A stretch of 41,773 nt of DNA from Actinomycetota bacterium (GCA_005884515.1 VAWS01000050.1:1-41773), one strand, 5' to 3'; shown: positions 6,322 to 28,221, counted from the stretch's first letter. Program-made: numbers and translations. The notes: generated by a model from the sequence alone, not told the origin.

Positions 6322-6347
6322 CTACCCCGCCGGCGCGGAAGGCAAAC
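6322..6347 (-). promoter_or_regulatory. SigB/SigF-type promoter candidate, GTTT-N16-GGGTAG, for the enolase-superfamily gene
   Basis: Minus strand reads GTTTgccttccgcgccggcgGGGTAG. The -10 box overlaps the TAG stop of the GH15 gene and ends 9 nt before ATG 6312, so the mRNA would be near-leaderless. Confidence 0.55.
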
Positions 6348-8130: not shown

Positions 8131-9122
8131 CGCGCCGCGCGCCGTCGCAATGCCAGCCCGACGGCCGCGCCCAGCGCGGTCACGCCGAAGAGGCGCTTCT
8201 TCGTGCTCAAGACGACCTCGGGACTGTGCGCGTGCGCGCGCGCATCGAAGTCGCCGTGCGCGCCGTGGTCGCCGGGAACAGGGCTGAACAGGTTGTTGGG
8301 TCGCGTCGGGTCCTCCGGTTCGTTGGTCTGTTGCGCCTTCACGCCGGTCAACGCCAGATACCGGTCGAGCAGCCCCGGAGCGACGTCGTTCGCCAGGATC
8401 GTCGCCGCAGTCGTCGCGCCGACCCAGCTCTCATGACGATGCGGATGGTCGGCGGCCCATGCGATCGCGCGCGCGGCGACCTCGGGCTGGTAGATCGGCG
8501 GCACCGGTTGCGCGCGGCGCGGCAGCCGCGACTTCACAACGGCGAACTGCGGCGTGTTCAGGGCCGGCAGCTGAACCATCGTGATATGCACGCCGCTCTG
8601 CTCGTGCAACAGCTCGCAGCGGACGGACTCGGTGAAGCCCTGGATCGCGTGCTTCGCGCCGCAGTACGCGGACTGAAGCGGGATCCCGCGGTACGCGAGC
8701 GCCGAGCCGACCTGCACGATCGCGCCGCGGTTGCGCGGCATCATGCGCGCCAGTGCGACCCGCGTCCCGTTCACGACGCCGTGATACGTCACATCGGTGA
8801 CGCGCTCGTACTCCTCCGGCGTGATCTGCCAGAAGGGCGCGAACACGCTCGTCATCGCGTTGTTGATCCACACGTCCATCCCGCCGAGCTCCGCCTCGAT
8901 CTGCGCCCCGGCTCGCTCGACCTGTTCCACGTCGGCAACGTCGGTCGGGATCGCAAGCGCGCGCCCACCGAGCTCCTCGACCTCTGCCGCCGTCGCTTTC
9001 AGGCCGTCTTCGCCCCGCGCCAGGACGCCGATGCGCCAGCCGCGCTCGGCGAAGACGCGCGCGGTCGCGCGCCCGACGCCCGACGTCGCCCCGGTGATGA
9101 CGACAACTTTCTGCGCTCTCAC
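8127..9122 (-). CDS. Short-chain dehydrogenase/reductase with C-terminal hydrophobic tail
   Basis: VVVITGATSGVGRA Rossmann motif and YCGAK catalytic motif. I prefer the GTG start at 9122 because a GGGAGG SD lies 4 nt upstream. The track start ATG 9164 falls inside the divergent promoter and its first codons are AT-rich at position 3. Confidence 0.85.
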   Translation of the reverse strand: MRAQKVVVITGATSGVGRATARVFAERGWRIGVLARGEDGLKATAAEVEELGGRALAIPTDVADVEQVERAGAQIEAELGGMDVWINNAMTSVFAPFWQITPEEYERVTDVTYHGVVNGTRVALARMMPRNRGAIVQVGSALAYRGIPLQSAYCGAKHAIQGFTESVRCELLHEQSGVHITMVQLPALNTPQFAVVKSRLPRRAQPVPPIYQPEVAARAIAWAADHPHRHESWVGATTAATILANDVAPGLLDRYLALTGVKAQQTNEPEDPTRPNNLFSPVPGDHGAHGDFDARAHAHSPEVVLSTKKRLFGVTALGAAVGLALRRRAAR

Positions 9123-9139: not shown

Positions 9140-9164
9140 GTTTCGCGACTGAAGTCACGGGCAT
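9140..9164 (+). promoter_or_regulatory. SigB/SigF-type promoter candidate, GTTT-N15-GGGCAT, for the 85-aa gene
   Basis: Plus strand reads GGTTTcgcgactgaagtcacGGGCAT. The -10 box ends 10 nt before ATG 9175, so the mRNA would be near-leaderless. Confidence 0.5.
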
Positions 9165-12364: not shown

Positions 12365-14149
12365 TCATCGGTGCAGGAACTCCTCGATCTTGCCTTTGAA
12401 CCCCTGCCTTATCACCTCGCGGGCATCGGGATCCCCGGCCATGATCGACTTCATCAGCTTCTTCGCCTGGTTCCATTCGATGTGCGGCGGCAGCGGTGGA
12501 ACGTTGGGGTCGACGACGGCTTCGAGCAACACCGGCCGGTCCGACGCGAACGCGTCGTCCCAGGCCGGCCCGACGGCATCGGGCGAGTCGACGCGGATCC
12601 CCTTGAATCCCAGCATGCGCGCGTAGCCCGCGTAGTCGAAGTCAGGAATCGTCTGCGACGCTTCGAACTTCGGGTCGCCTTCCATCGCCCGCTGCTCCCA
12701 CGTCACCTGGTTCAGATCGCGGTTGTTGAGCACCAGGAAGATCAGGCGCGGGTCGCGCCACTCCTTCCAATAGCGGGCAACCGTCAGCATCTCGTTCATC
12801 CCGTTCATCTGGAACGCACCGTCGCCGACGAGCGCGATCGGCACGCGCTCCGGGTACGCGAACTTTGCCGCGATGACGTACGGCACGCCGGGACCCATCG
12901 TCGCGAGCGTCCCGGACAGCGAGCACATCATCCCGCGGCGGATCTTGATGTCGCGCGCGAACCAATTGGCCGCCGAGCCCGAGTCCGCCGCGAGTATCGC
13001 GTTGTCGGGCAGGCGCTTCGACAGTTCCCAGAACACGCGCTGCGGGTTTACCGGGTCGGCATCGTTCATCGCGCGAGCGTGGACGATCTCCCACCACCGC
13101 GTCACCTCTTCGGTGATCTTCTGCTGCCAGCTGCGGTCTTCCTTCCGCCTCAGCATCGGGAGGAGCGCGCGCAACGTCTCCGCGCTGTCACCCACAAGCA
13201 TGCAGTCCATCGGGTACCGGATGCCGATCATCGTCCCGTCGAGGTCGACCTGCACCGCGCGGGCCTGGCCCCACTCCGGCATGAACTGGCTGTACGGGAA
13301 GCTGGACCCCACCATGAGCAGCGTGTCGCAGTCCATCATCATGTCGTAGCTGGGTTTCGTTCCGAGCAGCCCGATCGAACCCGTGACGAACGGCACGTCG
13401 TCGGGTACCGCATCTTTCCCGAGCAGCGCCTTGGCGATGCCGGCGCCGAGCACATCGGCGACCTCCAGCACCTCGTCGGTGGCGTGCTTGGCGCCTTGCC
13501 CGACGAGCATCGCGACTTTCTTCCCTTCGTTCAGGATGTCCGCCGCCGCAAGCAGGTCGTGCTCGGTCGGAAGCACGCGCGGCTCGTTGTACCCCACGGT
13601 TCCCGGAACCATCTTGAACTTGTGCGGCGGCTCCTCTTCCGCCGGCATCTCCTGAATGTCGGTCGGGATGATCACGCACGTGACGGTTCGCATCGCGCGC
13701 GCGATGCGCATCGCGCGATCGATGAGATTCGGGAACTGCTGCGGCGAGGCGGCCATCTGCACGTACTCGTGCGCGACGTCTTTGAACAAGCTGACGAGGT
13801 CGACCTCTTGTTGGTAGTTCCCGCCGAGGGCGCTCGTCGGCTGCTGGCCCACGATCGCGACCACAGGCTGATGGTCGAGCTTCGCATCGTAGAGACCGTT
13901 CAGAAGGTGAATCGCGCCGGGCCCCGACGTCGCCAGGCACACGCCCACCTCGCCGGTCCACTTCGCGTGACCGGTCGCCATGAACGCCGCCATCTCTTCG
14001 TGGCGGACCTGGATGAACCGCGGATCGTTGTTCGCGCGCTCGAGCGCGCCGAGGATGCCGTTGATGCCGTCGCCCGGGTAACCGAAGATCCGGCGAACCC
14101 CCCACTCCCGGAGGCGGTCGACGATCAGATCGCTGACGGACATGCCCAT
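12365..14149 (-). CDS. Thiamine-diphosphate enzyme, pyruvate oxidase / pyruvate:quinone oxidoreductase (PoxB/Pqo)-like
   Basis: Contains IFGYPGDGINGILGAL, ATSGPGAIHLLNGLYDA and the GDGAFQMNGMNE TPP-binding motif. Start taken at ATG 14149 (MGMSVSD), 6 nt after an AAGGAGGAGG SD. Confidence 0.9.
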   Translation of the reverse strand: MGMSVSDLIVDRLREWGVRRIFGYPGDGINGILGALERANNDPRFIQVRHEEMAAFMATGHAKWTGEVGVCLATSGPGAIHLLNGLYDAKLDHQPVVAIVGQQPTSALGGNYQQEVDLVSLFKDVAHEYVQMAASPQQFPNLIDRAMRIARAMRTVTCVIIPTDIQEMPAEEEPPHKFKMVPGTVGYNEPRVLPTEHDLLAAADILNEGKKVAMLVGQGAKHATDEVLEVADVLGAGIAKALLGKDAVPDDVPFVTGSIGLLGTKPSYDMMMDCDTLLMVGSSFPYSQFMPEWGQARAVQVDLDGTMIGIRYPMDCMLVGDSAETLRALLPMLRRKEDRSWQQKITEEVTRWWEIVHARAMNDADPVNPQRVFWELSKRLPDNAILAADSGSAANWFARDIKIRRGMMCSLSGTLATMGPGVPYVIAAKFAYPERVPIALVGDGAFQMNGMNEMLTVARYWKEWRDPRLIFLVLNNRDLNQVTWEQRAMEGDPKFEASQTIPDFDYAGYARMLGFKGIRVDSPDAVGPAWDDAFASDRPVLLEAVVDPNVPPLPPHIEWNQAKKLMKSIMAGDPDAREVIRQGFKGKIEEFLHR

Positions 14150-14192
14150 GGGAAGCCTCCTCCTTGGGCGCATGGATGCTTTCAATCCGTCA

Positions 14193-14218
14193 ATGCCCAC
14201 GGCTAGAAAGCGCGAAAC
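14193..14218 (-). promoter_or_regulatory. SigB/SigF-type promoter candidate, GTTT-N16-GGGCAT, for the PoxB-like gene
   Basis: Minus strand reads GTTTcgcgctttctagccgtGGGCAT, 43 nt upstream of ATG 14149. Confidence 0.5.
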
Positions 14219-14238
14219 GATTCGAGGTTATGCGTGGG

Positions 14239-14925
14239 TCACGCGTGGAAGAGCTTGCCGGAGAGCTTCTTCACCACAAAGAGCTCGAGCCCGGACGGGA
14301 ACGCCACGCCGACGTCCACGAACGTCGCGCGCACCTGCGCGCGGCCCCGCGCCAAGATTACGATGTCCTCCTGCACGGTGATCGCGGCGCCGGCAGCCGT
14401 CAGGTTGGCAACGACGCGGAACGCGGTCACGACGCCCTTCACCGCGACGACTCGCCTCGTGACGGCGACCGACCGGATCGTCGCCGAGAGCCCTCGGAGC
14501 TTGAGCTGCTCGGCGATGACCGGCCGCACGGCGGCCGTTGCGCACGGGATGACGCGCCGCCCTTTCAGCGCGGCGACCGCCTTGGTCGCAAGCGCCGTCG
14601 TGCGCGAGAACACGACCTCGCTGGCGATCGTCTGCGCACCTTGGCCGAACACGTCGCCGAACACGTCTGCCGAGACCGATCTCGCCGGGTCGGGAGCGCC
14701 GATGCAGGCTGCAAGTTTCTTGTCCTCGCGGTCGGAAACGGGATCCGAGCGATGCCGCGACGCCCGCCACCCCGGCGGCATGTCGACCTGCGTTAGAAGG
14801 AGCAGGCGCGCGCGGCCGGCGTCGTTCGTCGGCGTCGGAGGTACGGACGCCTTCGGCGTGCCGCCGCTGCACGCGACGAGGATCGCTGCGAGCGCGAGCG
14901 CCGGGAGCCGCACGAAAAGCTTCAT
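14239..14925 (-). CDS. Lipoprotein of unknown function
   Basis: 228 aa. The signal peptide carries a lipobox (LAAILVACSGG). Confidence 0.8.
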   Translation of the reverse strand: MKLFVRLPALALAAILVACSGGTPKASVPPTPTNDAGRARLLLLTQVDMPPGWRASRHRSDPVSDREDKKLAACIGAPDPARSVSADVFGDVFGQGAQTIASEVVFSRTTALATKAVAALKGRRVIPCATAAVRPVIAEQLKLRGLSATIRSVAVTRRVVAVKGVVTAFRVVANLTAAGAAITVQEDIVILARGRAQVRATFVDVGVAFPSGLELFVVKKLSGKLFHA

Positions 14926-14954
14926 CGCCGGGTCAGTCTAGAGGGCAGCACCCC

Positions 14955-14960
14955 TATACT
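14955..14960 (+). promoter_or_regulatory. -10 box (TATACT) placed for a leaderless transcript starting at ATG 14969
   Basis: TATACT is followed by 8 nt and then ATG 14969. No SD is present. Confidence 0.3.
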
Positions 14961-15018
14961 TCGCGCCCATGACGACGGTGCACGCCGCGTTCGGCATCGT
15001 TTCGGCCGCCGCCGTCGC

Positions 15019-18116: not shown

Positions 18117-19886
18117 TTACTGTTCGATCTTGAACTTCCGCTTACGGAGCACCGTGCCACCGCCGAGCGCCGCGAGCAGCATCAGGATGCCTGCCCAGGT
18201 GTACGCGCTGTCCGCAACGCCGGTCTTCGGCAGGATGGCCTTGACGAACGTCTCGGGCTCGGTGAGGGTGCCGGTGCCGGTGACGGGGACCTTGGCGTTG
18301 GTGATGCCCGTCACGGTCGTCTCGCCGCTGCCCGGAGCCGGCTTGCAGTTGGACACTGCACCTGCCGCCGTCGCGATGTCCTTGATCTTGCCGCCACCGC
18401 CGCCGGTCTTCAGCGTGACCGTGAAGGTCGCGTGACCACCGGGCGGGATGGTCGGCAGGCCCTTGTCCCACACGACCTTCGCCGTCGTGAGTCCGTCTGC
18501 CGTCGGCAGGTTCGGGCTGCTCGGGTCCGGCGTGGCCGAGGTGACCTGGAAGGTCGCGGTGCCTTCGATCGTGTCGATCTGGTCCGTCACGTTGCTCAGA
18601 ACCAGCGGGCACGACCAGGGGTTGTCGACCTGGATCGTCGTGGTGAACGACTTGCCGCTCTCAACCGTCGTCACGTCCGGCGTCTTCGTGACCGGGATCG
18701 GGCAGTTGATGCCGCCGGCCGGAACTGCCGCAGCCGCTTCGAGGTGACCGACGCTGAGGTCGAGGACGTGCCCCGGGATCTCAGGGATGTTCAGGAGCTT
18801 GAGCTCCACCACGTTGACCGATCCGGACGCTGCCGTTCCGGCCGCGTTCACGTTGCCCTTGATGTTCGGGCCCGTCGAGGACATCAGTTGCTCGAGAGTC
18901 GCGATCTTCAGCTGCAGGAGCAGATCCGTGCCGGCGTCGCCGGCCCCCGGCGGGATCTGGATGTCGATCCCGTTCGGGCCGGTTACCTGGTCGGGAAGGA
19001 TGTGGATCGGAGCCTGCCCGGGAGGCGTGATCGTGACCAACGGCGCGATGTAGTCGATGTTGTCCTTCTTGTTCGCGTGATGGGTCCCGTCAACCTTGAC
19101 CACCAGGAGTGCGGGTGCGACGTCAACTTGGATGTCGTTTCCGGTGCCCTTCAACAGCACGAGGTGCACGGCGTGCGTCATCGCAACGCTCGCAAGACCG
19201 AGGCCTGGACCGGCGCCCGGGTACAGCTGCGTAAACGACGCCGACTCGACGACACCCGCGTGCACGAGTGCTTGCTTGAACGAGTCGTCAGCGTTCGTTC
19301 CCATCCCCGAGTCGATGTTGATCGCATCGGCTGCAGCGAGGCGAGAGAAGCCCGACGAGATCGGCTCGCCAATCACGCAGGTGTTGGTGTTCCAGTTCGC
19401 AGCCGCGGTCGTGTGGAATCCGTCTACCCACAAGAGCGGGCTGCCCGGGACGTGCAGCGGGTCTTTGTCGTCAACCTTGGGACCGTTGGCGGTCGCGGCC
19501 TGCGACACCAGCGGTGCGATCTGGTTCGGATCGTCCTTGGTGACACCGAGACCAACCTCGGCGACAGATCCCTGACCGTACGACTTGTCCGCCGTGAATC
19601 CCTTGGGGAGGATCGGACGGTTGAACTCGTTGTACAGCGCTGTGGGAAGTCCTTCCGACGAAACGACTGCGTTCGACTGGCCGACTTCCACATTCGCCAC
19701 CTTGGTGCCCATCAGTTCGAGGGCATCAACATGCGCGACTTCACCACTCGCGAAACCGCCGTATGGGCCGCCCGTTGCGGCCGCGCTGACCGGAACCGCG
19801 AACGCGGTTACGACCACGCCGGTCATGAGTGCGATCAGAGACGCAGAGAACTTCCGTGCGGCGCGTCCCCCGCTAACTTTCAACAT
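18117..19886 (-). CDS. Sortase-anchored (LPXTG) cell-wall surface protein
   Basis: Has an N-terminal signal peptide. The C-terminal sorting signal is LPKTG, then a hydrophobic helix (AYTWAGILMLLAALGGGTVL), then the RKRKFK tail. Start taken at ATG 19886, which has an AGGGGG SD 6 nt upstream. Confidence 0.88.
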   Translation of the reverse strand: MLKVSGGRAARKFSASLIALMTGVVVTAFAVPVSAAATGGPYGGFASGEVAHVDALELMGTKVANVEVGQSNAVVSSEGLPTALYNEFNRPILPKGFTADKSYGQGSVAEVGLGVTKDDPNQIAPLVSQAATANGPKVDDKDPLHVPGSPLLWVDGFHTTAAANWNTNTCVIGEPISSGFSRLAAADAINIDSGMGTNADDSFKQALVHAGVVESASFTQLYPGAGPGLGLASVAMTHAVHLVLLKGTGNDIQVDVAPALLVVKVDGTHHANKKDNIDYIAPLVTITPPGQAPIHILPDQVTGPNGIDIQIPPGAGDAGTDLLLQLKIATLEQLMSSTGPNIKGNVNAAGTAASGSVNVVELKLLNIPEIPGHVLDLSVGHLEAAAAVPAGGINCPIPVTKTPDVTTVESGKSFTTTIQVDNPWSCPLVLSNVTDQIDTIEGTATFQVTSATPDPSSPNLPTADGLTTAKVVWDKGLPTIPPGGHATFTVTLKTGGGGGKIKDIATAAGAVSNCKPAPGSGETTVTGITNAKVPVTGTGTLTEPETFVKAILPKTGVADSAYTWAGILMLLAALGGGTVLRKRKFKIEQ

Positions 19887-20275
19887 GAGCAACCCCCTAG
19901 GTTGTCCAGCGTTACATCACTAGTCTTTCGCCACGGAGAGAGCAAAGCCCTGTCTCAGGTACCCGTTCCTTCGGTGACAAACCGGCAAGGTGGTCGTACC
20001 TGTCTCTCCGCCTACCTCAACGACTCCCGAACTCCGAAAGTCACGTGACAATGGCACGTTTGGGCTAGTCATTTCAACCCCTACCTTCCATGACCTAGGA
20101 AATCGGAAATGGACTCGCTCGTTCCAAAAAGCTCATTTCTCCTGGTGAGAGGCCGTCCGGCGCACACTTTGGAAAATTGGACAAAAAGGGCGCATTTGAC
20201 CACGGAGCGTGATAATCCAGTGGTCCGGTAATCTGTAACAGTTCGCTCGCCAGCAACAACGGGAACAACTGTGGC

Positions 20276-22339
20276 ATGGGTCGGATCACGCGGAGTGCCA
20301 GGCGAGGGGCATTTGCGATTCTTTTGTCGCTGGCGTCGGCGTGTTCCCTGACGCGCTTCGCGCCGCCGACGGCGACCCCCCTTCAGCTCCGCTCGACGAT
20401 CGTTGCGGCCGACGGGACGCCGCTCGCAACCCTGTTCGCTCAGAACCGCACGGCCGTTCCGGCGCACGCGATCCCGAGCGTGGTCAAGGCCGCGACGATC
20501 GCTGCGGAAGACGCGCGCTTCCTCAGCCACGCCGGCATCGACTTGAAGGGCATCGCGCGCGCATTCGTCGCGAATCTCGCAGCCGGTCGCGTCGTGCAAG
20601 GAGGGAGCACGATCACCGAACAGCTTGCGAAGCTGATGTACGGACCGAACGCACCGCGGACGCTCGGCGAGAAACTTCGCGAAGCACGTCTGGCCGCGTG
20701 GCTCGAGAACCGCTACTCGAAGGACGAGATCCTGTCGATGTACTTGAACCGCGCGTACTTCGGTCACGGTGCCTACGGGATCCAAGCGGCGGTCGAGACG
20801 TACTTCGACGTTCCGCTGCGCGCGATAGATTCGTCACGCGCAGCACTTCTGGCCGGACTTCTGCGCGCCCCGGCGGCGCTCGATCCTTTCCGAGACCCAT
20901 CGGGCGCACTCGCGCGACGCAACGAGGTCCTCGCGCGTATGCGCGATGCCGGAACGATCAGCGCCGCGGAGGCCGCGCGCGCTTCATCAGCGCCGCTTTC
21001 GTTGCGCACGCGCCCGTTGCCGACGAACGCGCACGCTCCCTACTTCGTCGAGTACGTCGAAGACCAAGTGCTGTCCGATCCCGCTTTCGGCGCGACCGAG
21101 CAAGAACGACAGGATGCGCTGTACCGAGGCGGGCTCACCATCCGAACGACACTCGATCCCCGTCTGCAGAACGCAGCCGATCAAGCCGTTTCCGGCGTGC
21201 TCGGACGCGTCGGCGATCCGGATGTCGCGTTGATCGCGATCGATCCGCACACGGGTGCCGTGCGGGCGATGATCGGCGGAAAGGACTTCGCGCGCGCGCC
21301 GTTCAACCTCGCGGTGCAGGCGAGGCGCCAACCGGGGAGCGCCTTCAAGCCGTTCGCGCTTGCGGCGGCGATCGAAGACGGCATCTCGCCCGACAAGACG
21401 TACCAGTCGTCGGAAACGACCTTGCATTTCGATGCGTACTCGAGCTGGCGCGTTCGCAACTACGACGGCGCCAGCGGGGGCATGATGTCTCTTCGCACCG
21501 CGACGGAACGCTCGGTCAATGCCGTGTACGCGCGCTTGGTCATGGACATCGGCCCGGGCGCAGTCGCCGGTATGGCGCAGCGCGCCGGCATCACGTCACC
21601 GCTCGAGACGTTCCCATCGATCGCGCTCGGCGCGCTCCGGACGGGTGTATCGCCGCTCGAGATGGCCTCGGCATACGGGACGTTCGCGAACGACGGCGTG
21701 CACATGCCGCCGCACGGGATCGCGCTCGCGAAGGACGCGTCGGGCAACGTCTTGTCCGACGAGGGCGCGCTGCGCGGGACGCCGGCGATGGATGCGGGCA
21801 TCGCCTACGAGGTCACGAGCGTCCTCCAGGACGTGGCGAGGTACGGAACCGGCGCCAACGCCCGGATCGGACGGCCGATGGCCGACAAGACGGGAACGAC
21901 CGACCGACACCGCGACGCATGGCTCGTCGGATACACGCCCGACCTCGTGACGGCGGTGTGGGTCGGCTACCGCATCCCGCGGCCGATGACGAACGTCTAC
22001 GGGATCAGCGTCGTCGGCGCGTCGTTCCCGTCGACGATCTGGCGACGCTTCATGTCGCGCGCGGAGGCGGGCAAGAAGGTGCGCGACTTCGACGTTCCGG
22101 CCGCGCTCATGCACGTGCGCGTCGCGGGTAACGGAACGTGCATCGCCGCGCCCGATCAGCCCGGAATGGACGAATCGCTCCCTGTGTCCCTTGTTCCATC
22201 GTCGCCGTGCCCGCGCCCGACTCCGCCGGCTCCGTCGCCGTCGCCGAGCCCCGCCGTCCCTTCTCCCTCGCCGTCAGCAACTGCGTCTGCGTCGCCGAAG
22301 CCCTCTCCGTCTCCAAAGCCTTCGGTTTCTCCGCGCTGA
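20276..22339 (+). CDS. Class A penicillin-binding protein (GT51 transglycosylase plus transpeptidase)
   Basis: Glycosyltransferase motifs are AAEDARFLSHAGID and GGSTITEQLAK. Transpeptidase motifs are SAFKPF (SxxK), SVN and KTGTT. The C-terminal tail is Pro/Ser-rich. Confidence 0.92.
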   Translation: MGRITRSARRGAFAILLSLASACSLTRFAPPTATPLQLRSTIVAADGTPLATLFAQNRTAVPAHAIPSVVKAATIAAEDARFLSHAGIDLKGIARAFVANLAAGRVVQGGSTITEQLAKLMYGPNAPRTLGEKLREARLAAWLENRYSKDEILSMYLNRAYFGHGAYGIQAAVETYFDVPLRAIDSSRAALLAGLLRAPAALDPFRDPSGALARRNEVLARMRDAGTISAAEAARASSAPLSLRTRPLPTNAHAPYFVEYVEDQVLSDPAFGATEQERQDALYRGGLTIRTTLDPRLQNAADQAVSGVLGRVGDPDVALIAIDPHTGAVRAMIGGKDFARAPFNLAVQARRQPGSAFKPFALAAAIEDGISPDKTYQSSETTLHFDAYSSWRVRNYDGASGGMMSLRTATERSVNAVYARLVMDIGPGAVAGMAQRAGITSPLETFPSIALGALRTGVSPLEMASAYGTFANDGVHMPPHGIALAKDASGNVLSDEGALRGTPAMDAGIAYEVTSVLQDVARYGTGANARIGRPMADKTGTTDRHRDAWLVGYTPDLVTAVWVGYRIPRPMTNVYGISVVGASFPSTIWRRFMSRAEAGKKVRDFDVPAALMHVRVAGNGTCIAAPDQPGMDESLPVSLVPSSPCPRPTPPAPSPSPSPAVPSPSPSATASASPKPSPSPKPSVSPR

Positions 22340-22350
22340 CACAAGGGAAC
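22325..22350 (+). promoter_or_regulatory. SigB/SigF-type promoter candidate, GTTT-N16-GGGAAC, for membrane protein gene 22380
   Basis: Plus strand reads GGTTTctccgcgctgacacaaGGGAAC. It straddles the PBP stop codon (22337..22339), with the -35 box in the last PBP codons and the -10 box just downstream. It lies 29 nt upstream of ATG 22380. Confidence 0.45.
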
Positions 22351-22379
22351 AAACAGATCACGGAAGGAGGGTGTTGAAC

Positions 22380-22856
22380 ATGGCTCTCGAACACGAGCAC
22401 ATCCACGAGGTGCACGAGTCCGTCGTTTCTGAAGAGCCGGCCGCAGTGCGCGAGCCGTTCGGCATCGCACAGTTCTTCTCGCTGGCGATCGGCATCTTCC
22501 TGATCGTCATCGGCGCGATCGGACTGGCACGCGCAGGACTCCACCACATCGATTCTCCGACCGTGTCGGTCGGTCCCTTCACGATGACGCCGTTGCTCGC
22601 GGCCGTGAAGCTGTTCCTCGGTCTGGTCGGCTTGATCGGCGCTGCCGGTCGAGCAGCCGCGCGCGGCGTGTGCATGTTCATCGGGCCGGCGCTGCTTGCC
22701 GGCGGGATCGTTGCGCTGATCCAGAGCGTCAGGGTCCTCGGCTGGAACCGAGCGGACGCTGTTATCTACATCATCTTGGGCAGCGCGTCGATACTCGCCG
22801 CGCTGGTGACGCCGATGTTGACGTCGTACTCGGAACGCCGCGTTACCGCGGTGTAA
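22380..22856 (+). CDS. Four-helix membrane protein with His-rich N-terminus
   Basis: Tail of track ORF 22191..22856, from MALEHEHIHEVHE. A GGAAGGAGGG SD lies 8 nt upstream. Confidence 0.8.
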   Translation: MALEHEHIHEVHESVVSEEPAAVREPFGIAQFFSLAIGIFLIVIGAIGLARAGLHHIDSPTVSVGPFTMTPLLAAVKLFLGLVGLIGAAGRAAARGVCMFIGPALLAGGIVALIQSVRVLGWNRADAVIYIILGSASILAALVTPMLTSYSERRVTAV

Positions 22857-22860
22857 GGGA

Positions 22861-22980
22861 CTACGCGTCGGGGACCGGCTCGGGGTTCTCTTCCTCGAGG
22901 GCGCGCGCCCGGCTCTTCACCCGTTCGTCGTCGGGCTCTTCGCCGTCGGGGACGCGTTCATCGATCATCTCGTCGCCCAT
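22861..22980 (-). CDS. 39-aa highly acidic mini-protein (not in ORF track)
   Basis: Hand translation gives MGDEMIDERVPDGEEPDDERVKSRARALEEENPEPVPDA. Third codon positions are almost all G/C. A GAAAGGAG SD lies 6 nt upstream, and a promoter motif lies 27 nt upstream. Confidence 0.6.
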   Translation of the reverse strand: MGDEMIDERVPDGEEPDDERVKSRARALEEENPEPVPDA

Positions 22981-23007
22981 ATCGGGCTCCTTTCGACCGC
23001 TCGGGAA

Positions 23008-23033
23008 CTACCCACGTCTGCGGCCGGGCAAAC
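23008..23033 (-). promoter_or_regulatory. SigB/SigF-type promoter candidate, GTTT-N16-GGGTAG, for the 39-aa gene
   Basis: Minus strand reads GTTTgcccggccgcagacgtGGGTAG. Confidence 0.55.
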
Positions 23034-23035
23034 GG

Positions 23036-23069
23036 ACGTAAAAGCGCGCGCCCCACAGGGCGCGCGCTT
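23036..23069 (-). terminator. Intrinsic terminator after the 50-aa membrane gene
   Basis: A 12-bp GC-rich stem (23042..23053 with 23058..23069) and a CACA loop. On the minus strand TTTTAC follows. Confidence 0.6.
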
Positions 23070-23088
23070 CGATCGTCTCTCGTTGACG

Positions 23089-23241
23089 CTACCAGCGATA
23101 CCACCGGCGCTCGGGTCCGTGCGCGACGAAACCGATGAACCAAAGGATGAGCGCAGCGATCGCGACGTACCAAAGCACCTTCAAAGCAAAGCCGGCGCCG
23201 AACAAGATCACGACCAACAGCAAGATCAGAAGTGCCGCCAT
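23089..23241 (-). CDS. 50-aa two-helix hydrophobic mini-protein (not in ORF track)
   Basis: Hand translation gives MAALLILLLVVILFGAGFALKVLWYVAIAALILWFIGFVAHGPERRWYRW. A GGGAGGG SD lies 4 nt upstream. It resembles the small lmo0937-type membrane peptides. Confidence 0.65.
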   Translation of the reverse strand: MAALLILLLVVILFGAGFALKVLWYVAIAALILWFIGFVAHGPERRWYRW

Positions 23242-23295
23242 ACCGCCCTCCCTTCATCGTCTGTTGGTGCTCAGTTGATTCTGGTGCTCAGGTAA

Positions 23296-23321
23296 ATTCC
23301 CCCCCGCGAGCGCCGACAAAC
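23296..23321 (-). promoter_or_regulatory. SigB/SigF-type promoter candidate, GTTT-N16-GGGAAT, for the 50-aa gene
   Basis: Minus strand reads GTTTgtcggcgctcgcggggGGGAAT, 54 nt upstream of ATG 23241. Confidence 0.5.
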
Positions 23322-23343
23322 ATGGGACGAAACGGCTGTCGAC

Positions 23344-23381
23344 GTGAAAGGAACGAGCCGGCGCTCGGAAGCGCCGGCTCG
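23344..23381 (-). terminator. Intrinsic terminator after the Rho_N-domain gene
   Basis: An 11-12 bp stem, CGAGCCGGCGC (23354..23364) with GCGCCGGCTCG (23371..23381). On the minus strand TTCCTTTCAC follows. Confidence 0.55.
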
Positions 23382-23398
23382 GACGGGGTCCTGTTGCG

Positions 23399-23743
23399 TT
23401 AACCGCTACGCCCGCGTCTCCGATCGACCGCGGAAGCCAACTGGCGCTTGCTCATCTTCGAGCGGCCTTCGATCCCGAGCGCCTTCGCTTCGTCGTAGAG
23501 CTGATCGCGCGTACGCCCGCGCGGCCCGTGGTGCGAACGAAGCCCGCCACGACGCGAGGACGAGATGTCGGTACGCGAAAGACGGGAGCTCTCCTTCGCT
23601 TCGCCGGCGCGCGCGCGCTCTTTGTTCACGGTGCGCGCAGCGATCTCTTCTGCGGTGTCTTCGTCGCGACCGTGCTCGAGCAGCCCTCCTTTGATGTGCT
23701 CGTACTGACGCTCACGCTTCTCGCTCCAAGCCCGCTGCGGCAT
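23399..23743 (-). CDS. Small basic protein with C-terminal Rho-N/SAP-like helix-extension-helix motif
   Basis: Starts MPQRAWSEKRERQYEHIKGGL and ends with TRDQLYDEAKALGIEGRSKMSKRQLASAV, which looks like a Rho termination factor N-terminal domain. Start taken at ATG 23743, 7 nt after a GGAGGTG SD. Confidence 0.8.
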   Translation of the reverse strand: MPQRAWSEKRERQYEHIKGGLLEHGRDEDTAEEIAARTVNKERARAGEAKESSRLSRTDISSSRRGGLRSHHGPRGRTRDQLYDEAKALGIEGRSKMSKRQLASAVDRRRGRSG

Positions 23744-23781
23744 GTGACAACACCTCCACATATTTCGTGGTCTTTTCAATC

Positions 23782-23806
23782 ATTCCCCGCCGCGTTTTCC
23801 GTAAAC
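23782..23806 (-). promoter_or_regulatory. SigB/SigF-type promoter candidate, GTTT-N15-GGGAAT, for the Rho_N-domain gene
   Basis: Minus strand reads GTTTacggaaaacgcggcgGGGAAT, 38 nt upstream of ATG 23743. Confidence 0.5.
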
Positions 23807-23823
23807 GGCTCGCGAAAACAGGC

Positions 23824-23849
23824 GTTTGGCACGCACAGGCAATGGGCAT
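23824..23849 (+). promoter_or_regulatory. SigB/SigF-type promoter candidate, GTTT-N16-GGGCAT, for the His-tagged membrane mini-protein
   Basis: Plus strand reads GTTTggcacgcacaggcaatGGGCAT, 59 nt upstream of ATG 23909. It sits back-to-back with the 23782..23806 element. Confidence 0.5.
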
Positions 23850-23908
23850 TAGCAGCGACAGGACGTGCACCACCGGTGCATCGCGAGAGACGATGAAGGA
23901 GGGTAGAG

Positions 23909-24190
23909 ATGGCCGACCTACACCACCACCACGGCGATACAAGCAGCACTACCGTCGTGAGTGAGGGCTACGATCGAGAAGGCCCGGCCACAGCATTGAT
24001 CGTTCTCCTGATCCTTGCATTCGTGGGATTCTTGATCTGGCTCTTTGCTTTCAGCGGGATCATGTTCGGACACAACGGCAGCTCAACGACCAACAACAAC
24101 GTCAGGATCCAACAACCGGTTCAGCAGCCTGCCAACCCGGGGACGAACTCCGGCAATACTTCCGGCGGCGGCTCGCCGATGCCGACCTAA
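23909..24190 (+). CDS. 93-aa single-pass membrane protein with N-terminal HHHH and Asn/Gln/Gly-rich tail
   Basis: Starts MADLHHHHGD, has one helix (LIVLLILAFVGFLIWLFAF), then a low-complexity tail. A GAAGGAGGG SD lies 5 nt upstream. Confidence 0.75.
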   Translation: MADLHHHHGDTSSTTVVSEGYDREGPATALIVLLILAFVGFLIWLFAFSGIMFGHNGSSTTNNNVRIQQPVQQPANPGTNSGNTSGGGSPMPT

Positions 24191-24206
24191 CCCAAAGAAG
24201 AACGTG

Positions 24207-24236
24207 CGACGCGCGCCGGGAGACCGGCGCGCGTCG
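24207..24236. terminator. Bidirectional terminator hairpin between convergent genes
   Basis: A 13-bp perfect stem, CGACGCGCGCCGG with CCGGCGCGCGTCG, and a GAGA loop. The minus-strand side has T-rich flanks (GTTCTTCTTTGGG). Confidence 0.6.
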
Positions 24237-24251
24237 GCTTGTATGGCCCTG

Positions 24252-24743
24252 CTAGTCGAACGACGGCATCGCGTCGGTCCCGGCCGACATCTGTCCGGCC
24301 GGAACGACGAAACGCACCGTGGTGCCCCGTTCTTCGTTGCGCACGATCTCAGCGCCCGGGAACAGTGAGCTGATAAGCGTGAGCCCGAGCGATCCTTCGT
24401 ACAACCCGGCCGCCGGCGTCACGGCGCCGTCCGAGACCGCCTTCTGCAGCTCGGTGTCGATCCCTCCGCCGGCGTCGACGACCTCGAACTGCAGATCGCC
24501 GTCCACGAGGCGCGCGAGCAGCTCGATCGGCTCCAACGTTTCCGTATCGCGATGCGCTTTGACGGAGTTCGTGCACGCTTCCGACACAGCGACCTTGACG
24601 TCCTCGACGACGTCCTCGTCACATCCGAAGTGGCGGGCGACCGAGCCGGCGAACATGCGCGCCATCGCGATGTAGTCCGCTTCCGGAGGGATGCTCAGGC
24701 GAAGCTGCTCGGTCGCTCTGTCTTGGTCAGTTCGCGTTGCCAA
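24252..24743 (-). CDS. RsbW/SpoIIAB-type anti-sigma factor serine kinase (HATPase_c)
   Basis: 163 aa with a TTG start 6 nt after a GGGAAGGA SD. The N-box (SEACTNSVKAH), G1 (VVDAGGGI) and G2 (GSLGLTLI) motifs are all present. Confidence 0.85.
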   Translation of the reverse strand: MATRTDQDRATEQLRLSIPPEADYIAMARMFAGSVARHFGCDEDVVEDVKVAVSEACTNSVKAHRDTETLEPIELLARLVDGDLQFEVVDAGGGIDTELQKAVSDGAVTPAAGLYEGSLGLTLISSLFPGAEIVRNEERGTTVRFVVPAGQMSAGTDAMPSFD

Positions 24744-24767
24744 TCGACGTCCTTCCCGCGGAGGGCC

Positions 24768-25115
24768 TCAGCCCGCCGCGACCGCCTGCTCGACCGATTC
24801 GTGGATCGGGAAGACGTTGTTCAGTCCCGTGATCGAAAGCACGCGCAGGACCGGCCTGCTCGAGCAGACCAACGACAGAACGCCCTCGTGCTCCTTGACC
24901 CGCTTGAGCCCGCCGACGAGCGTCCCCAAGCCGGTGCTGTCCATGAAGGACACGCCCTGCAGGTTCACGATGATCTTGTAGCGGCCTTGGTCCACGGTCT
25001 CCACAAGCCGCTCGCGCAACTTCGGAGCCGTGAACATGTCGACCTCTCCTTGGACGTCGACGACCGTCCACGGGCCTTCCTGACGCGACTCAACGACGAA
25101 GTCGATCGCCGCCAC
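24768..25115 (-). CDS. STAS-domain anti-sigma-factor antagonist (RsbV/SpoIIAA-like)
   Basis: 115 aa. GEVDMFTAPKLRERL, and the conserved phosphorylatable serine context FMDSTGLGTLVG. The start (GTG 25115) is uncertain by a few codons. Confidence 0.88.
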   Translation of the reverse strand: MAAIDFVVESRQEGPWTVVDVQGEVDMFTAPKLRERLVETVDQGRYKIIVNLQGVSFMDSTGLGTLVGGLKRVKEHEGVLSLVCSSRPVLRVLSITGLNNVFPIHESVEQAVAAG

Positions 25116-25142
25116 CCCCTCTGTAGAATCGGCCTGGCTAGA

Positions 25143-25169
25143 TTACCCAGCGCATGTTCCCACCAAACC
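25143..25169 (-). promoter_or_regulatory. SigB/SigF-type promoter candidate, GGTTT-N16-GGGTAA, for the STAS/kinase operon
   Basis: Minus strand reads GGTTTggtgggaacatgcgctGGGTAA, 27 nt upstream of GTG 25115. Confidence 0.6.
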
Positions 25170-25191
25170 GTCATGCTACCCATGTCCAGCG

Positions 25192-25219
25192 GGTTTCCAC
25201 TTCCAAGCCCTGGGGGTAA
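25192..25219 (+). promoter_or_regulatory. SigB/SigF-type promoter candidate, GGTTT-N17-GGGTAA, for the anti-sigma/sigma operon (autoregulation)
   Basis: Plus strand reads GGTTTccacttccaagccctggGGGTAA, 30 nt upstream of GTG 25250. Confidence 0.6.
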
Positions 25220-25249
25220 GACTCTTCCACCTGAGCCCAAGGAGCCCAT

Positions 25250-25636
25250 GTGAGCGAGATACGCCTTTCCGTTCCGGCGCGCGCCGACTACGTCCACGTG
25301 CTCCGGTCGGTTATCGCCAGTGTGGCGGCCAAGCTCGACTTCTCCTACGACGACATCGAGGACCTGCGGCTGGCCGTCGATGAAGCGTGCGCCTACTTGT
25401 TGGGTCTGCGCGACGGTCCGACCTCGTTGACGCTGACTATCACGCCGAGCAGCAGTGCCGTCGATGTGCTCGCGTCGGTCGACGGCGCCGAGGCCACGGA
25501 GCGAGCCCAGGGCCTGCAAGCCAACATGGTGTGGCATCTGCTCGGCGCCCTGACCGACGAGGCGCGCTTCGACGAGTCGGCCGGGCATCCGGGGATCCGT
25601 TTCACGAAGCGCGCGCCCGCGGGCGCCGGGCGCTGA
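25250..25636 (+). CDS. Anti-sigma factor of the RsbW/UsfX type with degenerate ATP-binding motifs
   Basis: 128 aa with a GTG start after an AAGGAG SD. The layout is anti-sigma-like (DYVHVLRSVIASVAAKLDFSYDDIEDLRLAVDEA). It has no N-box Asn (DEACAYLL) and no DxGxG or GxG boxes. It lies immediately upstream of the sigma gene. Confidence 0.7.
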   Translation: MSEIRLSVPARADYVHVLRSVIASVAAKLDFSYDDIEDLRLAVDEACAYLLGLRDGPTSLTLTITPSSSAVDVLASVDGAEATERAQGLQANMVWHLLGALTDEARFDESAGHPGIRFTKRAPAGAGR

Positions 25637-25648
25637 CGGCCTTTCGCT

Positions 25649-26398
25649 ATGGCGGAAACCGACAACGAGCTCCAAGAAGAGCGAGCAGCCGAGCTGTTCG
25701 CCGCGTTGCCGGACGACGCCGCGCGCGAAGAGCTCGTGCGGATGTTCTTCCCGCTCGTCGAGTACCTGTCGCGGCGCTTCCGGAGCCGCGGCGAGCCGCT
25801 CGACGACTTGGTTCAGGTCGCAAGCATCGGCTTGCTCAAGGCGATCGACCGGTTCGAGACAGACCGCGGCGTGAAATTCTCGACCTACGCCGTGCCGACG
25901 ATCATCGGCGAGCTGAAACGCCACTTCCGCGATACCGGGTGGGCGATGCGCGTGCCACGTCGGTTGCAGGAGCGCGCGCTGCTGCTTCGGTCGGTGATCG
26001 CCGACTCCTACCAGGAGCTGGGCCGCTCCCCGACGGTCGCCGAGATCGGACAGCGCGCCGGTCTGTCCGAGGAAGAAGTCCTCGAGGCGATGGACACCAT
26101 GCACGCGCACTCGGTCGAGTCCCTGGACGCGCCGATCGACGACGACGACAACAGCTCGATGACCACGCTGGGGACGGAGGATCAGCTGATCGAGCAGCTC
26201 GAGGGATGGGCCGACGTCGCGCCTCTGCTGCGCACGCTGCCGGAGCGGGAACGGCTTCTCCTTTATTACCGCTTTGTCGCCGGCATGCCCCAGAGCCAGA
26301 TCGCCCAGAAGCTCGGGATCTCGCAGATGCACGTCTCCCGACTGCTCTCACGGACACTCCAGACGCTGCGGACCGCGGTCAGCGGCGTCGATGGGTGA
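25649..26398 (+). CDS. Group 3 sigma-70 factor of the SigB/SigF/SigG subfamily
   Basis: 249 aa. Region 2 is DLVQVASIGLLKAIDRFETDRGVKFSTYAVPTIIGELKRHFRD. Region 3 is present. The region 4 HTH is QSQIAQKLGISQMHVSRL. Confidence 0.9.
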   Translation: MAETDNELQEERAAELFAALPDDAAREELVRMFFPLVEYLSRRFRSRGEPLDDLVQVASIGLLKAIDRFETDRGVKFSTYAVPTIIGELKRHFRDTGWAMRVPRRLQERALLLRSVIADSYQELGRSPTVAEIGQRAGLSEEEVLEAMDTMHAHSVESLDAPIDDDDNSSMTTLGTEDQLIEQLEGWADVAPLLRTLPERERLLLYYRFVAGMPQSQIAQKLGISQMHVSRLLSRTLQTLRTAVSGVDG

Positions 26399-26413
26399 AT
26401 GTGCCGAGGGCAG

Positions 26414-26439
26414 GTTTCACCGGCGAACGGCTCGGGTAC
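26414..26439 (+). promoter_or_regulatory. SigB/SigF-type promoter candidate, GGTTT-N16-GGGTAC, directed at the S8 protease gene
   Basis: Plus strand reads GGTTTcaccggcgaacggctcGGGTAC. It begins 15 nt after the sigma gene stop and lies 222 nt upstream of ATG 26662. Confidence 0.55.
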
Positions 26440-26661
26440 TTCTGGGGGAAGACATAGCAGGACAGGCCTCCCCGACCCGACGTAAGCGTCGTCGCGGCCG
26501 GGGTGAAGCCCCCAGGACCCTGCGGCTTCCCCAGGCCGCGGGGTCCGCCCGTTGAGGGACCTTTTTCTCCATCCTCCCGTCCGTGACCCAGGCTCCGCAC
26601 CGCCGTAGCGTCGAGCCTGGACGCCACCGGCTCCTCCCCGTCGGACGCTCGAGGAGGAGAG

Positions 26662-28221
26662 ATGAAGAAGCTCGTCACCACATTCGTCGCGTTGCTCGCC
26701 TTTCCGCTGACTCAGACGCCGGCACTCGCATCGGACCGCGCGACCGTCATCGTGCACCTGGCGCCGGGCGGGTCGGTGCGCGAGCTTCACGAGCGCGCCG
26801 GCGCGTTTCCCGTGCGCGCGCGCTGGCACGCCGTCGACGCGTTGGCCGCTTCCCTGACCCGCGTGCAACGCGCGCGCCTGGCGCGTGACCCGCTCGTCCG
26901 ATCGATCGAGCCCGAGCGCACCTATCGGATAACGGCGAGCACCGCGCGAGCCTCGTACGGCGTGGCGAAAGCGGCCGCCGACTTCGGCATGACCGGCGAC
27001 CGCGACGGCGCGCCGAAGACGTATACGCGCACAGACGTCGTCGCGTGCGTGATCGACACGGGGATCGACTCGTCGCATGTGGATCTCAACCAAGGGCAAG
27101 TGATCGGCTGGAAGGACTTCGTCAACGGACGGACGTCGCCGTACGACGACAACGGACACGGCACGCACGTGTCGGCGATCCTCGCCGGACAAGGCGACGG
27201 CAATGCCGCGTACCGTGGCGTGGCACCGGGCGCCGCCCTCGTCGGCGTGAAGGCGATGAATTCGTCCGGCGCCGGTTCGACGTCGACGATCATCTCCGCT
27301 GTGCAGTGGTGCATCGACAAGAAGGCCACCTACAACATCCGCATCATCAACATGAGCTTCGGCAGCAACGGGCCGTCGAGCGGAACCGACACCCTGTCTG
27401 CGATCGTGAACACCGCCGCCGACCGAGGGATCCTGCCGGTGGTCGCCGCCGGGAACGGCGGCCCCGCTGCGTCGACCGTCGGCTCTCCGGCTGCAGCGGC
27501 GAAGGCGCTGACCGTGTGCAGCATCTCCGACCCCGGCGTGAAAGGGTTCTCCGTGTCGCCGTGGTCGTCGCGCGGACCTACCGCGGACGGTCGCGCGAAG
27601 CCCGACGTGTGCGGCCCCGGGCAGACCATCACATCCGCGAAGGCGGGTTCGGGCAACGGATACGTCACGCACTCGGGGACGAGCATGGCGGCGCCGTTCG
27701 TCGCCGGCGTCGTGGCGCTGATGCTCGACGTGAACAACGCGCTGACCCCGGCGCAGCTGAAGTACCACATGATGGTCTCGGCGCAGGACTGGGTGGTGGC
27801 CGGCACGGACTCCGATACGGGCGCCGGCAGGTTGCAGGCGTATGAAGCGATCAAGCGGGTCGGTGGACTCTCGGGAACCGGACCGGCCGTGCCCAACCAC
27901 TACATGACCGGCAGCTCGTTGCGCGCGAGCGGCAACGAAGATCAGTGGTCGATCCGGATCGCGAGCACCTCGTCACCGATCGCCGTCACGTTGATCATCC
28001 CCGGCGCGAGTGCGAGCAAGGACTTCGACATCCGCCTGCGCGCGCCGAATGGCACGGTGCTCGCAACGAGCAACGGAACGTCGCGGCAGGAAACGATCGG
28101 CATCACGCCGGGAGTGACGGGAACGTACGTGTTGCTTGTCGACTCCTACACGGGGATCGGCGGCTACGATCTCGATTTCTCTTATAACGGAAGCGCGCCG
28201 GTGTTGGTCAGCAACGGCTGA
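26662..28221 (+). CDS. Secreted subtilisin-like serine peptidase (S8) with propeptide and C-terminal PPC-type domain
   Basis: 519 aa. Signal peptide MKKLVTTFVALLAFPLTQTPALA. Triad contexts are VIDTGID, HGTHVSAILAG and SGTSMAAPFVAGVVALM. The C-terminal beta domain contains GTYVLLVDSYTGIGGYDLDFSY. A GAGGAGGAGAG SD directly abuts the ATG. Confidence 0.92.
   Translation: MKKLVTTFVALLAFPLTQTPALASDRATVIVHLAPGGSVRELHERAGAFPVRARWHAVDALAASLTRVQRARLARDPLVRSIEPERTYRITASTARASYGVAKAAADFGMTGDRDGAPKTYTRTDVVACVIDTGIDSSHVDLNQGQVIGWKDFVNGRTSPYDDNGHGTHVSAILAGQGDGNAAYRGVAPGAALVGVKAMNSSGAGSTSTIISAVQWCIDKKATYNIRIINMSFGSNGPSSGTDTLSAIVNTAADRGILPVVAAGNGGPAASTVGSPAAAAKALTVCSISDPGVKGFSVSPWSSRGPTADGRAKPDVCGPGQTITSAKAGSGNGYVTHSGTSMAAPFVAGVVALMLDVNNALTPAQLKYHMMVSAQDWVVAGTDSDTGAGRLQAYEAIKRVGGLSGTGPAVPNHYMTGSSLRASGNEDQWSIRIASTSSPIAVTLIIPGASASKDFDIRLRAPNGTVLATSNGTSRQETIGITPGVTGTYVLLVDSYTGIGGYDLDFSYNGSAPVLVSNG

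Follow-up and report, generated by a model that had tools for sequence, protein, structure and literature searches.

A cluster of five small genes with SigF/SigB-type promoters beside a partner-switching sigma factor module in a soil Actinomycetota genome

In Mycobacterium smegmatis, a SigF-dependent run of mostly 'conserved hypothetical' genes (MSMEG_1758-1804) lies directly by rsbW-sigF, and the genes of this island each have their own GTTT-N15-16-GGG(T/A/C)A promoter. The experimentally determined SigF consensus of that species is GTTT-N14-19-GGGTA (PMC4694148), and the SigB homologues of Streptomyces coelicolor read promoters of this same shape (PMC8346170). The sigmaB promoters of Bacillus and Listeria have the form GTTTaa-N12-14-GGG(A/T)A(A/T) (PMC8346170). 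Here we describe an island of five small genes (positions 22325-24236, 1.9 kb) within a 41,773-nt stretch of DNA from an Actinomycetota bacterium (GCA_005884515.1, VAWS01000050.1:1-41773), the whole of which is referred to below as the window. The island lies beside genes for a sigma factor and its partner-switching regulators. We propose, with a probability of about 0.75, that the five genes are monocistronic units of a regulon under a SigF/SigB-type (group 3) sigma factor, whose gene is most likely the one that lies 1.4 kb away.

The window resembles the M. smegmatis system (rsbW1-sigF; rsfB-rsbW2) in several respects. In both, a group 3 sigma gene shares one operon with an upstream anti-sigma gene, a STAS protein and an RsbW kinase are encoded in a separate operon, there is an autoregulatory GTTT-N16-GGGxA promoter, and a run of small genes with promoters of their own lies nearby. 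The window island differs in being much smaller, with only five genes, and in its gene content, since no match to ChaB or UsfY was found among its genes. Its units are individually terminated, and its host is an uncultured, deep-branching soil Actinomycetota known from sequence alone. With the sigmaB regulons of Bacillus and Listeria the window shares the promoter shape, partner switching of the RsbV/RsbW type, and many small hydrophilic or membrane proteins that have no assigned function. Those regulons belong to another phylum, and the window showed no stressosome genes of the RsbT/RsbU type. The layout is already known from M. smegmatis, and what we describe is an ordinary stress-regulon cluster, well supported as such.

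The five open reading frames (ORFs) of the island are all real protein-coding genes. From left to right they encode a DUF4383 membrane protein of 158 aa (22380-22856, plus strand; ribosome-binding site (RBS) AAGGAGG), an acidic product of 39 aa (22861-22980, minus strand; RBS AAGGAG), a hydrophobic peptide of 50 aa (23089-23241, minus strand; RBS GGGAGG), a basic, Rho_N-like protein of 114 aa (23399-23743, minus strand; RBS GGAGG) and a single-pass membrane protein of 93 aa (23909-24190, plus strand; RBS AAGGAGG). The left neighbour of the island is a gene for a class A penicillin-binding protein (PBP); on the right follow, in order, the minus-strand operon for the RsbW-like and STAS proteins and the plus-strand operon for the anti-sigma and sigma factors. 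The initial annotation of this DNA had ascribed a GGAGG-type RBS to every gene, and such a site can be read in the sequence 6-10 nt before each of the five ATG codons.

Coding status was assessed from the ratio of nonsynonymous to synonymous substitution rates (dN/dS) between the window and L008, a related contig from a metagenome-assembled genome. This contig was recovered by a genome scan with the sigma factor, has 97% sigma identity, and carries the five genes in the same order (dS ~0.6). The dN/dS values were 0.235 for the DUF4383 gene, 0.227 for the acidic gene at full length, 0.089 for both the 50-aa and the 114-aa gene, and 0.255 for the 93-aa gene, comparable to those of the neighbouring regulatory genes (0.03-0.18). 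Third codon positions hold most of the substitutions in the small genes, both against L008 and against a second relative, L077; in the 114-aa gene the counts by codon position were 9/4/37 and 7/4/44, respectively. The GC content at third codon positions (GC3) of the small genes is 0.74-0.83. Because purifying selection and third-position bias occur in exactly these frames, we regard the five ORFs as genes. A synonymous-biased pattern had been named as the test of their coding status, and it is found against both relatives (dN/dS 0.09-0.26).

The acidic ORF had been described as a 39-aa peptide gene in its own right, but near-identical contigs show it to be an in-frame 126-nt deletion allele of a gene for an acidic protein of 81 aa. 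The deletion lies at position 22864/22865 of the window relative to 10863-10988 of contig L001, and the full 81-aa protein is encoded at this place by four near-identical contigs from other soil samples. The deletion may be genuine, as a polymorphism between strains, or may have arisen in assembly; the 39-aa product itself was looked up by exact match and has no record. Two of the genes had also been considered too short for gene callers. This was not so, as the 50-, 81- and 93-aa genes have been called by JGI/ENA pipelines; the 50-aa gene is thus publicly called, and the 39-aa ORF is a truncated allele of a called gene.

Each of the five genes is preceded by a SigF/B-type promoter motif. The whole window was scanned for GTTT-N14-17-GGGNA with 100 shuffles as the null, which gave 14 matches (12 distinct sites) versus 1.42 expected, a ten-fold enrichment; none of the 100 shuffles reached 14 matches, and the largest shuffled count was five. 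All but one of the 12 sites have a start codon on the same strand 10-225 nt downstream. The 1.9-kb island holds five sites, and each of its five start codons has one of them 26-60 nt ahead of it; two further sites precede both sigma-module operons, and another four stand before larger genes in other parts of the window. The DUF4383 gene has GTTT-N16-GGGAA at 22325-22349 (plus strand), with a -35 box that falls within the final codons of the PBP gene before it. On the minus strand, the acidic gene has GTTT-N16-GGGTA at 23009-23033, the 50-aa gene GTTT-N15/16-GGGAA at 23297-23321, and the 114-aa gene GTTT-N14/15-GGGAA at 23783-23806; the 93-aa gene has GTTT-N16-GGGCA at 23824-23848 on the plus strand. 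The last two sites are divergent and stand back to back, just as the initial annotation had described them, and the sigma-type box that it had placed before every gene is present at all five, enriched and conserved in orthologues. The two module sites, also of SigF/B type, are at 25144-25168 (minus strand, STAS-RsbW operon) and 25193-25218 (plus strand, anti-sigma/sigma operon).

The promoter comparison took in the window, L008, L077, two loci at ~65% sigma identity (L009 and L010), three at ~51% (L071, L073 and L074), and L076 and L078, which hold distant homologues of the acidic and the 93-aa gene, respectively. A strict match to the motif was found in 18 of 21 orthologous promoters; one of the three exceptions, the 114-aa gene of L073, has a 21-nt spacer, and the other two are taken up below. 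The DUF4383 promoter is kept in L008 and L010, the acidic-gene promoter in L077, L009, L010 and L076, the 50-aa-gene promoter in L008, L077 and L009, with diverged spacers, the 114-aa-gene promoter in L008, L077, L071 and L074, and the 93-aa-gene promoter in L008, L077 and L078. Both module promoters are kept in L008, L009, L010 and L077. Alignments with L008 show the -35 GTTT and the -10 GGGNA retained and the spacers and flanks diverged. Each gene also retains a -10 flavour of its own, which is GGGAA in the DUF4383, 50-aa and 114-aa genes, GGGTA in the acidic gene and, among close relatives, GGGCA in the 93-aa gene. The window motif is that of the published SigF and SigB-homologue consensus (PMC4694148, PMC8346170). 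A sigma-70 consensus scan of 21500-25500 returned no promoter-like sites, and housekeeping-type promoters therefore do not explain the units. The motif is genuine, as are its enrichment and its conservation in evolution, and these support the prediction that the five genes are independently promoted members of a SigB/F-type sigma regulon.

Strong hairpins are present at the three places where the initial annotation had put them, all with perfect GC stems of 11-13 bp and energies of -28 to -34.5 kcal/mol (z -3.3 to -4.1). The intrinsic terminator of the 114-aa gene (23344-23381, minus strand) consists of an 11-12-bp GC stem (23355-23380) followed by UUCCUUUCAC (-28.2 kcal/mol, z -3.3). The second, that of the 50-aa gene (23036-23070, minus strand), has a 13-bp GC stem (23041-23070) followed by UUUUAC (-33.2 kcal/mol, z -3.7) and ends 2 nt ahead of the next -35 box. 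The hairpin at 24207-24236, between the convergent 93-aa and RsbW-like genes, has a 12-bp GC stem (24208-24235) that folds on either strand (-34.5 kcal/mol on the plus strand, -31.2 kcal/mol on the minus strand) and is probably a bidirectional terminator. U-rich tails are clear on the minus strand after all three hairpins; the tail of the plus-strand copy of the last one is poor (GGCUUGUAU), and a strict T-run scan was passed by one of the three. In L008 the stem at 23041-23070 is identical, that at 23355-23380 is conserved with a different loop, and the hairpin at 24208-24235 is conserved as well. With these stems, the three tandem minus-strand genes make up three promoter-gene-terminator units. 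The stop codons of the DUF4383 (plus strand) and acidic (minus strand) genes are 4 nt apart (22854-22863) with no hairpin between them, and the two transcripts would overlap as mutual antisense if both stress promoters fired together.

The island had been said to lie next to a partner-switching and sigma module, and we identified there a sigma factor, two RsbW-like proteins and a STAS antagonist. The gene at 24252-24743 (minus strand) encodes an RsbW-like HATPase_c_2 serine kinase/anti-sigma paralogue (PF13581, 7e-22; NCBIfam RsbW, 1e-20) and is co-operonic with that for the STAS anti-sigma-factor antagonist at 24768-25115 (minus strand; Pfam STAS, 1.8e-22; TIGR00377, 103 bits, above the cutoff), in whose translation a DSTG phosphorylation-type motif can be read. 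A UsfX/RsbW1-like anti-sigma protein of 128 aa (25250-25636, plus strand; PF13581; NCBIfam RsbW, 2.5e-13, N-terminal part only) is encoded directly upstream of the sigma gene (25649-26398, plus strand). The product of the latter is a SigB/SigF/SigG-family group 3 sigma factor with Sigma70 regions 2, 3 and 4 (TIGR02980, 270.7 bits versus a cutoff of 234.35, E 1e-80). The motif before the anti-sigma/sigma operon implies that this operon would be autoregulated.

The whole island and module are syntenic in L008 and L077, and the full five-gene island was found only in these close relatives and in near-identical contigs. At ~65% sigma identity (L009/L010), homologues of the 50-aa, acidic and DUF4383 genes lie near the module, with the motif before each. 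At ~51% (L071, L073, L074), only the 114-aa gene remains, 3-5 kb off and 78-82% identical, and other small motif-bearing genes hold the positions beside the module. The view of the island as a dedicated cassette is thus overstated. We regard the small genes as a regulon whose members tend to cluster near their regulator, and not as a fixed cassette; the association is real but loose. In the distant genomes, the slot by the RsbW/STAS operon is occupied by a different small gene with a SigF/B-type motif (L071 11500-11748, L073 12377-12598, L074 10574-10792), which encodes a Cys-rich protein of 72-82 aa (…GRVCxNxxCSTVLSIYNxxGxCWQHE…), possibly a zinc ribbon. In L071, the sigma gene is directly followed by one for a type IB topoisomerase (13946-15015) that has a SigF/B-type motif, a parallel to the SigF-dependent type I topoisomerase MSMEG_1784 of the M. 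smegmatis island.

By analogy with M. smegmatis SigF, the 128-aa anti-sigma protein would keep the sigma factor inactive, the unphosphorylated STAS protein would free it, and the RsbW-like kinase would reset the switch by re-phosphorylating the STAS protein. From GTTT-N14-17-GGG(T/A/C)A promoters, free sigma factor would then drive transcription of the operon that encodes it, of the STAS-kinase operon and of every small gene, with the strong hairpins insulating the transcription units. The predicted products are three small membrane proteins (a four-transmembrane DUF4383 protein, the two-transmembrane 50-aa protein and a bitopic, His-rich protein of 93 aa) and two highly charged soluble proteins (an acidic one of ~81 aa, truncated here, and the basic one of 114 aa). 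Such a set of membrane and highly charged soluble products is typical of general stress or dormancy regulons. The most likely role, which we put forward with low certainty, would be to protect the membrane, as well as nucleic acids or ribonucleoprotein, under general stress or in dormancy. We infer which sigma factor reads the promoters, what kind of signal induces them, and that the products protect the cell and act as effectors rather than as regulators.

From sequence alone, the analysis reconstructs a stress regulon of the SigF/SigB type in a soil Actinomycetota lineage that is uncultured; the regulon takes in two autoregulated promoters of the module and four or more further candidate targets. 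The analysis attaches a stress-sigma context to the 114-aa family, to the 50-aa two-helix family and to two lineage-restricted families, and may help in deciding which small stress proteins to study in relatives that are tractable (Mycobacterium, Streptomyces). It offers no new mechanism and leaves the understanding of such regulons unchanged; its value is greatest for the 114-aa family.

Several observations weigh against assigning the five genes to a regulon of the adjacent sigma factor. The acidic gene in L008 is without the motif, the DUF4383 gene in L077 has a degenerate -35 box (GTGT), and three Streptomyces loci with 114-aa homologues have no motif upstream. The DUF4383 gene has no terminator toward either the upstream PBP gene or the convergent acidic gene. 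Sequence and fold searches of PDB gave nothing significant, and no biochemical function was assigned to the products. Moreover, Actinobacteria often carry several cross-recognising SigB/F paralogues (PMC8346170), so the promoters might be genuine SigB/F-type promoters that are read mainly by a paralogous sigma factor encoded elsewhere, with the proximity to the module historical and not functional. Nine SigB homologues of S. coelicolor do cross-recognise promoters of this shape (PMC8346170), and the five-gene island is not kept beside the sigma gene in more distant genomes. We nevertheless consider a distant sigma factor unlikely, as the motif also stands before both operons of the adjacent module, three diverged genomes keep island and module in synteny, and the 114-aa gene recurs within 10 kb of an orthologous module.

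Some of the small proteins might instead be inputs to, or feedback modulators of, the partner-switching circuit rather than stress effectors, for example the bitopic 93-aa protein or the acidic protein acting on a kinase, phosphatase or anti-sigma factor. This would fit the position of the 93-aa gene, which abuts the RsbW-like gene, and those of two distant homologues, that of the acidic gene in L076 (between an RsbW-like gene and one for a 1049-aa GAF/PAS protein) and that of the 93-aa gene in L078 (beside a PAS/GAF histidine kinase and a WhiB gene). Yet these linkages are loose and come from single loci, the proteins have no domain known to bind partner-switching components, and the precedent island of M. 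smegmatis was described as regulon output, which together leave a modulator role somewhat less probable than control by a distant sigma factor. The 50-aa peptide, being small, very hydrophobic and equipped with its own promoter and terminator, might also be read as a membrane peptide resembling type I toxins, its antitoxin being the hairpins beside it or antisense transcription. Its strong conservation (dN/dS 0.089, with RWYRW across 172 representative clusters) argues against this, as do the stress-sigma promoter before the gene in four genomes and the finding that the strand opposite the gene has neither a SigF/B-type motif nor a sigma-70-type promoter over its length, and we consider a toxin very improbable. 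Finally, high-GC DNA yields many spurious ORFs (56 in 4.5 kb), and ORFs and motifs alike could in principle be chance features of a GC-rich intergenic stretch. Purifying selection in exactly these frames effectively refutes this, and the existence of homologue families and of a tenfold enriched, evolutionarily conserved motif leaves it next to no credibility. Membership of the five genes in a SigF/SigB-type regulon remains the reading that we prefer.

The initial annotation had stated that none of the five products has an assignable function. This is essentially still the case, except that three of them fall in or near named families, namely DUF4383, the 'plasmid stabilization protein / Rho_N domain-containing' family and, by weak similarity, DUF5670/lmo0937. 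NCBIfam gave no usable match for the five proteins, the sole match being Cei to the 93-aa protein (E 0.053, 13 bits versus a cutoff of 150).

The 114-aa protein is basic (isoelectric point (pI) 10.8), with a grand average of hydropathy (GRAVY) of -1.42 and 9.6% Gly. Its match to Rho_N (PF07498; E 6.3e-5, 23.3 bits) is below the cutoff of 24.9, and many close homologues have a precomputed PF07498 match. The family is very large, with all 8000 scored candidates at E <= 0.001, and identity to annotated Streptomyces, Kitasatospora, Embleya and Nocardia proteins is 55-66%. By sequence the protein is a clear member of the small proteins of Actinomycetota that PGAP names 'plasmid stabilization protein' or 'Rho termination factor N-terminal domain-containing protein'. 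These names are uninformative or misleading; no experimental function was found for the family, and the literature on Rho_N small proteins in SigF/SigB contexts yielded nothing functional. An AlphaFold2 model, with a mean predicted local distance difference test (pLDDT) score of 73, has two confident helical hairpins and a low-confidence SS-x-RRGG segment joining them. The residues S61 S62 x R64 R65 G66 G67 are sequence-invariant though modelled as disordered. The C-terminal part is modelled as a Rho_N-like helix-extended-helix, and Foldseek aligned the C-terminal hairpin locally, though not significantly, with the Rho N-terminus (2a8v) over 40 columns (root mean square deviation 1.1, probability 0.72, E 6.3). 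Foldseek of the model against PDB gave no match at E <= 0.001, a PDB sequence search gave none at E up to 10, and Pfam at E up to 10 returned nothing for the N-terminal half. A by-eye resemblance of the N-terminus to a DUF7218 protein of L071 had raised the possibility of ChaB/DUF7218 kinship, which was dropped as no profile matched.

The stress-sigma context of this family extends beyond the island. Among 76 metagenomic homologues, 16 have the strict motif within 130 nt upstream, versus a background of 1.3%, and with a relaxed -35 box 28 do so, versus 3.8%. Of 20 loci that span at least 7 kb, seven have a SigB/F-type sigma gene within 10 kb, in the fetched flank; around a homologue on an annotated Streptomyces megaplasmid, no sigma gene lies nearby. 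What is new for the family is thus its frequent association with a SigF/B-type promoter and its frequent linkage to a SigB/F module. Identity of the 114-aa protein to its L071/L073/L074 counterparts (8001-8348) is 78-82%, versus only ~51-53% for the adjacent sigma factors, and the constraint is unusually strong for a protein without assigned function.

The acidic family comprises 74 homologue clusters of 62-122 aa, mostly 75-87 aa. Its best-conserved motif, the C-terminal RVERRTSEDATPPPD, falls in the deleted part, and the 39-aa ORF is without it. The 81-aa protein has a pI of 4.05 and a GRAVY of -1.38. Pfam at E up to 10 returned nothing useful for it (DUF768 at E 0.17), and a Pfam scan of 20 family members returned nothing. 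Like hydrophilins and late embryogenesis abundant (LEA)-like proteins, the 114-aa and acidic proteins are small, highly charged, partly disordered and encoded behind stress promoters. There is no sequence relationship to those proteins, and the likeness is one of composition only, judged by the hydrophilin criteria.

Of the membrane proteins, the 158-aa protein has about four hydrophobic segments and a His-rich N-terminus (EHEHIHEVHE), and passes DUF4383 (PF14325) marginally, with 27.5 bits versus a cutoff of 27 over 124 of 125 profile positions; the literature on DUF4383 in SigF/SigB contexts yielded nothing functional. The 50-aa protein consists of two hydrophobic helices and a C-terminal RWYRW, and the 172 representative clusters of its family share conserved LFGxGF, LW..GF and RWYRW. 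The window protein itself does not match PF18919 (DUF5670) or NF033488 (lmo0937 family membrane protein), whereas 14 of 31 relatives match the former (best E 2.2e-4) and 18 of 31 the latter (best E 5.6e-5), all weakly. The lmo0937 protein of Listeria, likewise a small membrane protein and about as long as the 50-aa product, is 54-fold sigmaB-dependent (PMC2813243). With similarity this weak, the dependence is a suggestive parallel for the 50-aa family and does not prove homology.

The 93-aa protein has a conserved MADLHHHH N-terminus, a highly conserved transmembrane helix and a low-complexity S/T/N/G/P tail. Its family comprises 49 lineage-restricted clusters, in which H5 and H7 are invariant, and Pfam at E up to 10 gave nothing useful. 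His-rich N-termini occur on both plus-strand membrane proteins, MALEHEHIHEVHE at 22380-22420 and MADLHHHHGD at 23909-23935, and may bind metal.

A further SigF/B-type motif lies at 26414-26438 (plus strand), immediately past the sigma stop codon. It is followed by a strongly structured segment of ~125 nt with a U-run at its end, upstream of an S8 peptidase gene whose ATG (26662) is ~90 nt beyond the U-run. The segment contains a variable hairpin, then a perfectly conserved 14-bp hairpin (GGACCCUGCGGCUU-CCCC-AGGCCGCGGGGUCC) within a longer stem, and then the U-run. This region (window 26414-26580; L008 9443-9600; L077 6001-6175) is nearly identical among the three, versus a coding dS of ~0.6. 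Rfam gave no family in the window at gathering thresholds, and for 26380-26700 at E up to 10 it gave noise only. The segment may be a sigma-dependent small RNA of ~125 nt or an attenuator leader. It would enter a wider reading, doubtful as a whole, in which the 114-aa protein is an ancient core effector of the actinobacterial SigF/SigB-type response, accompanied by two lineage-specific families (the acidic 81-aa and the His-rich bitopic 93-aa proteins) and by this sigma-dependent RNA, all of them so far undescribed. If that were true, the 114-aa protein could bind RNA, DNA, the ribosome or RNA polymerase in dormancy.

The remaining motif sites are scattered over the window. The site at 9140-9163 (plus strand) has no obvious gene downstream. 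On the minus strand, the site at 14194-14218 lies upstream of a gene for a thiamine pyrophosphate (TPP)-dependent enzyme (12365-14152), and that at 6323-6347 upstream of a gene for a mandelate racemase/MLE-family enzyme (5227-6312), which has almost no leader, its -10 box and ATG being 10 nt apart. The site at 19960-19982 (minus strand) lies upstream of a gene for a 591-aa protein without a Pfam domain (18117-19892) and is kept in L077.

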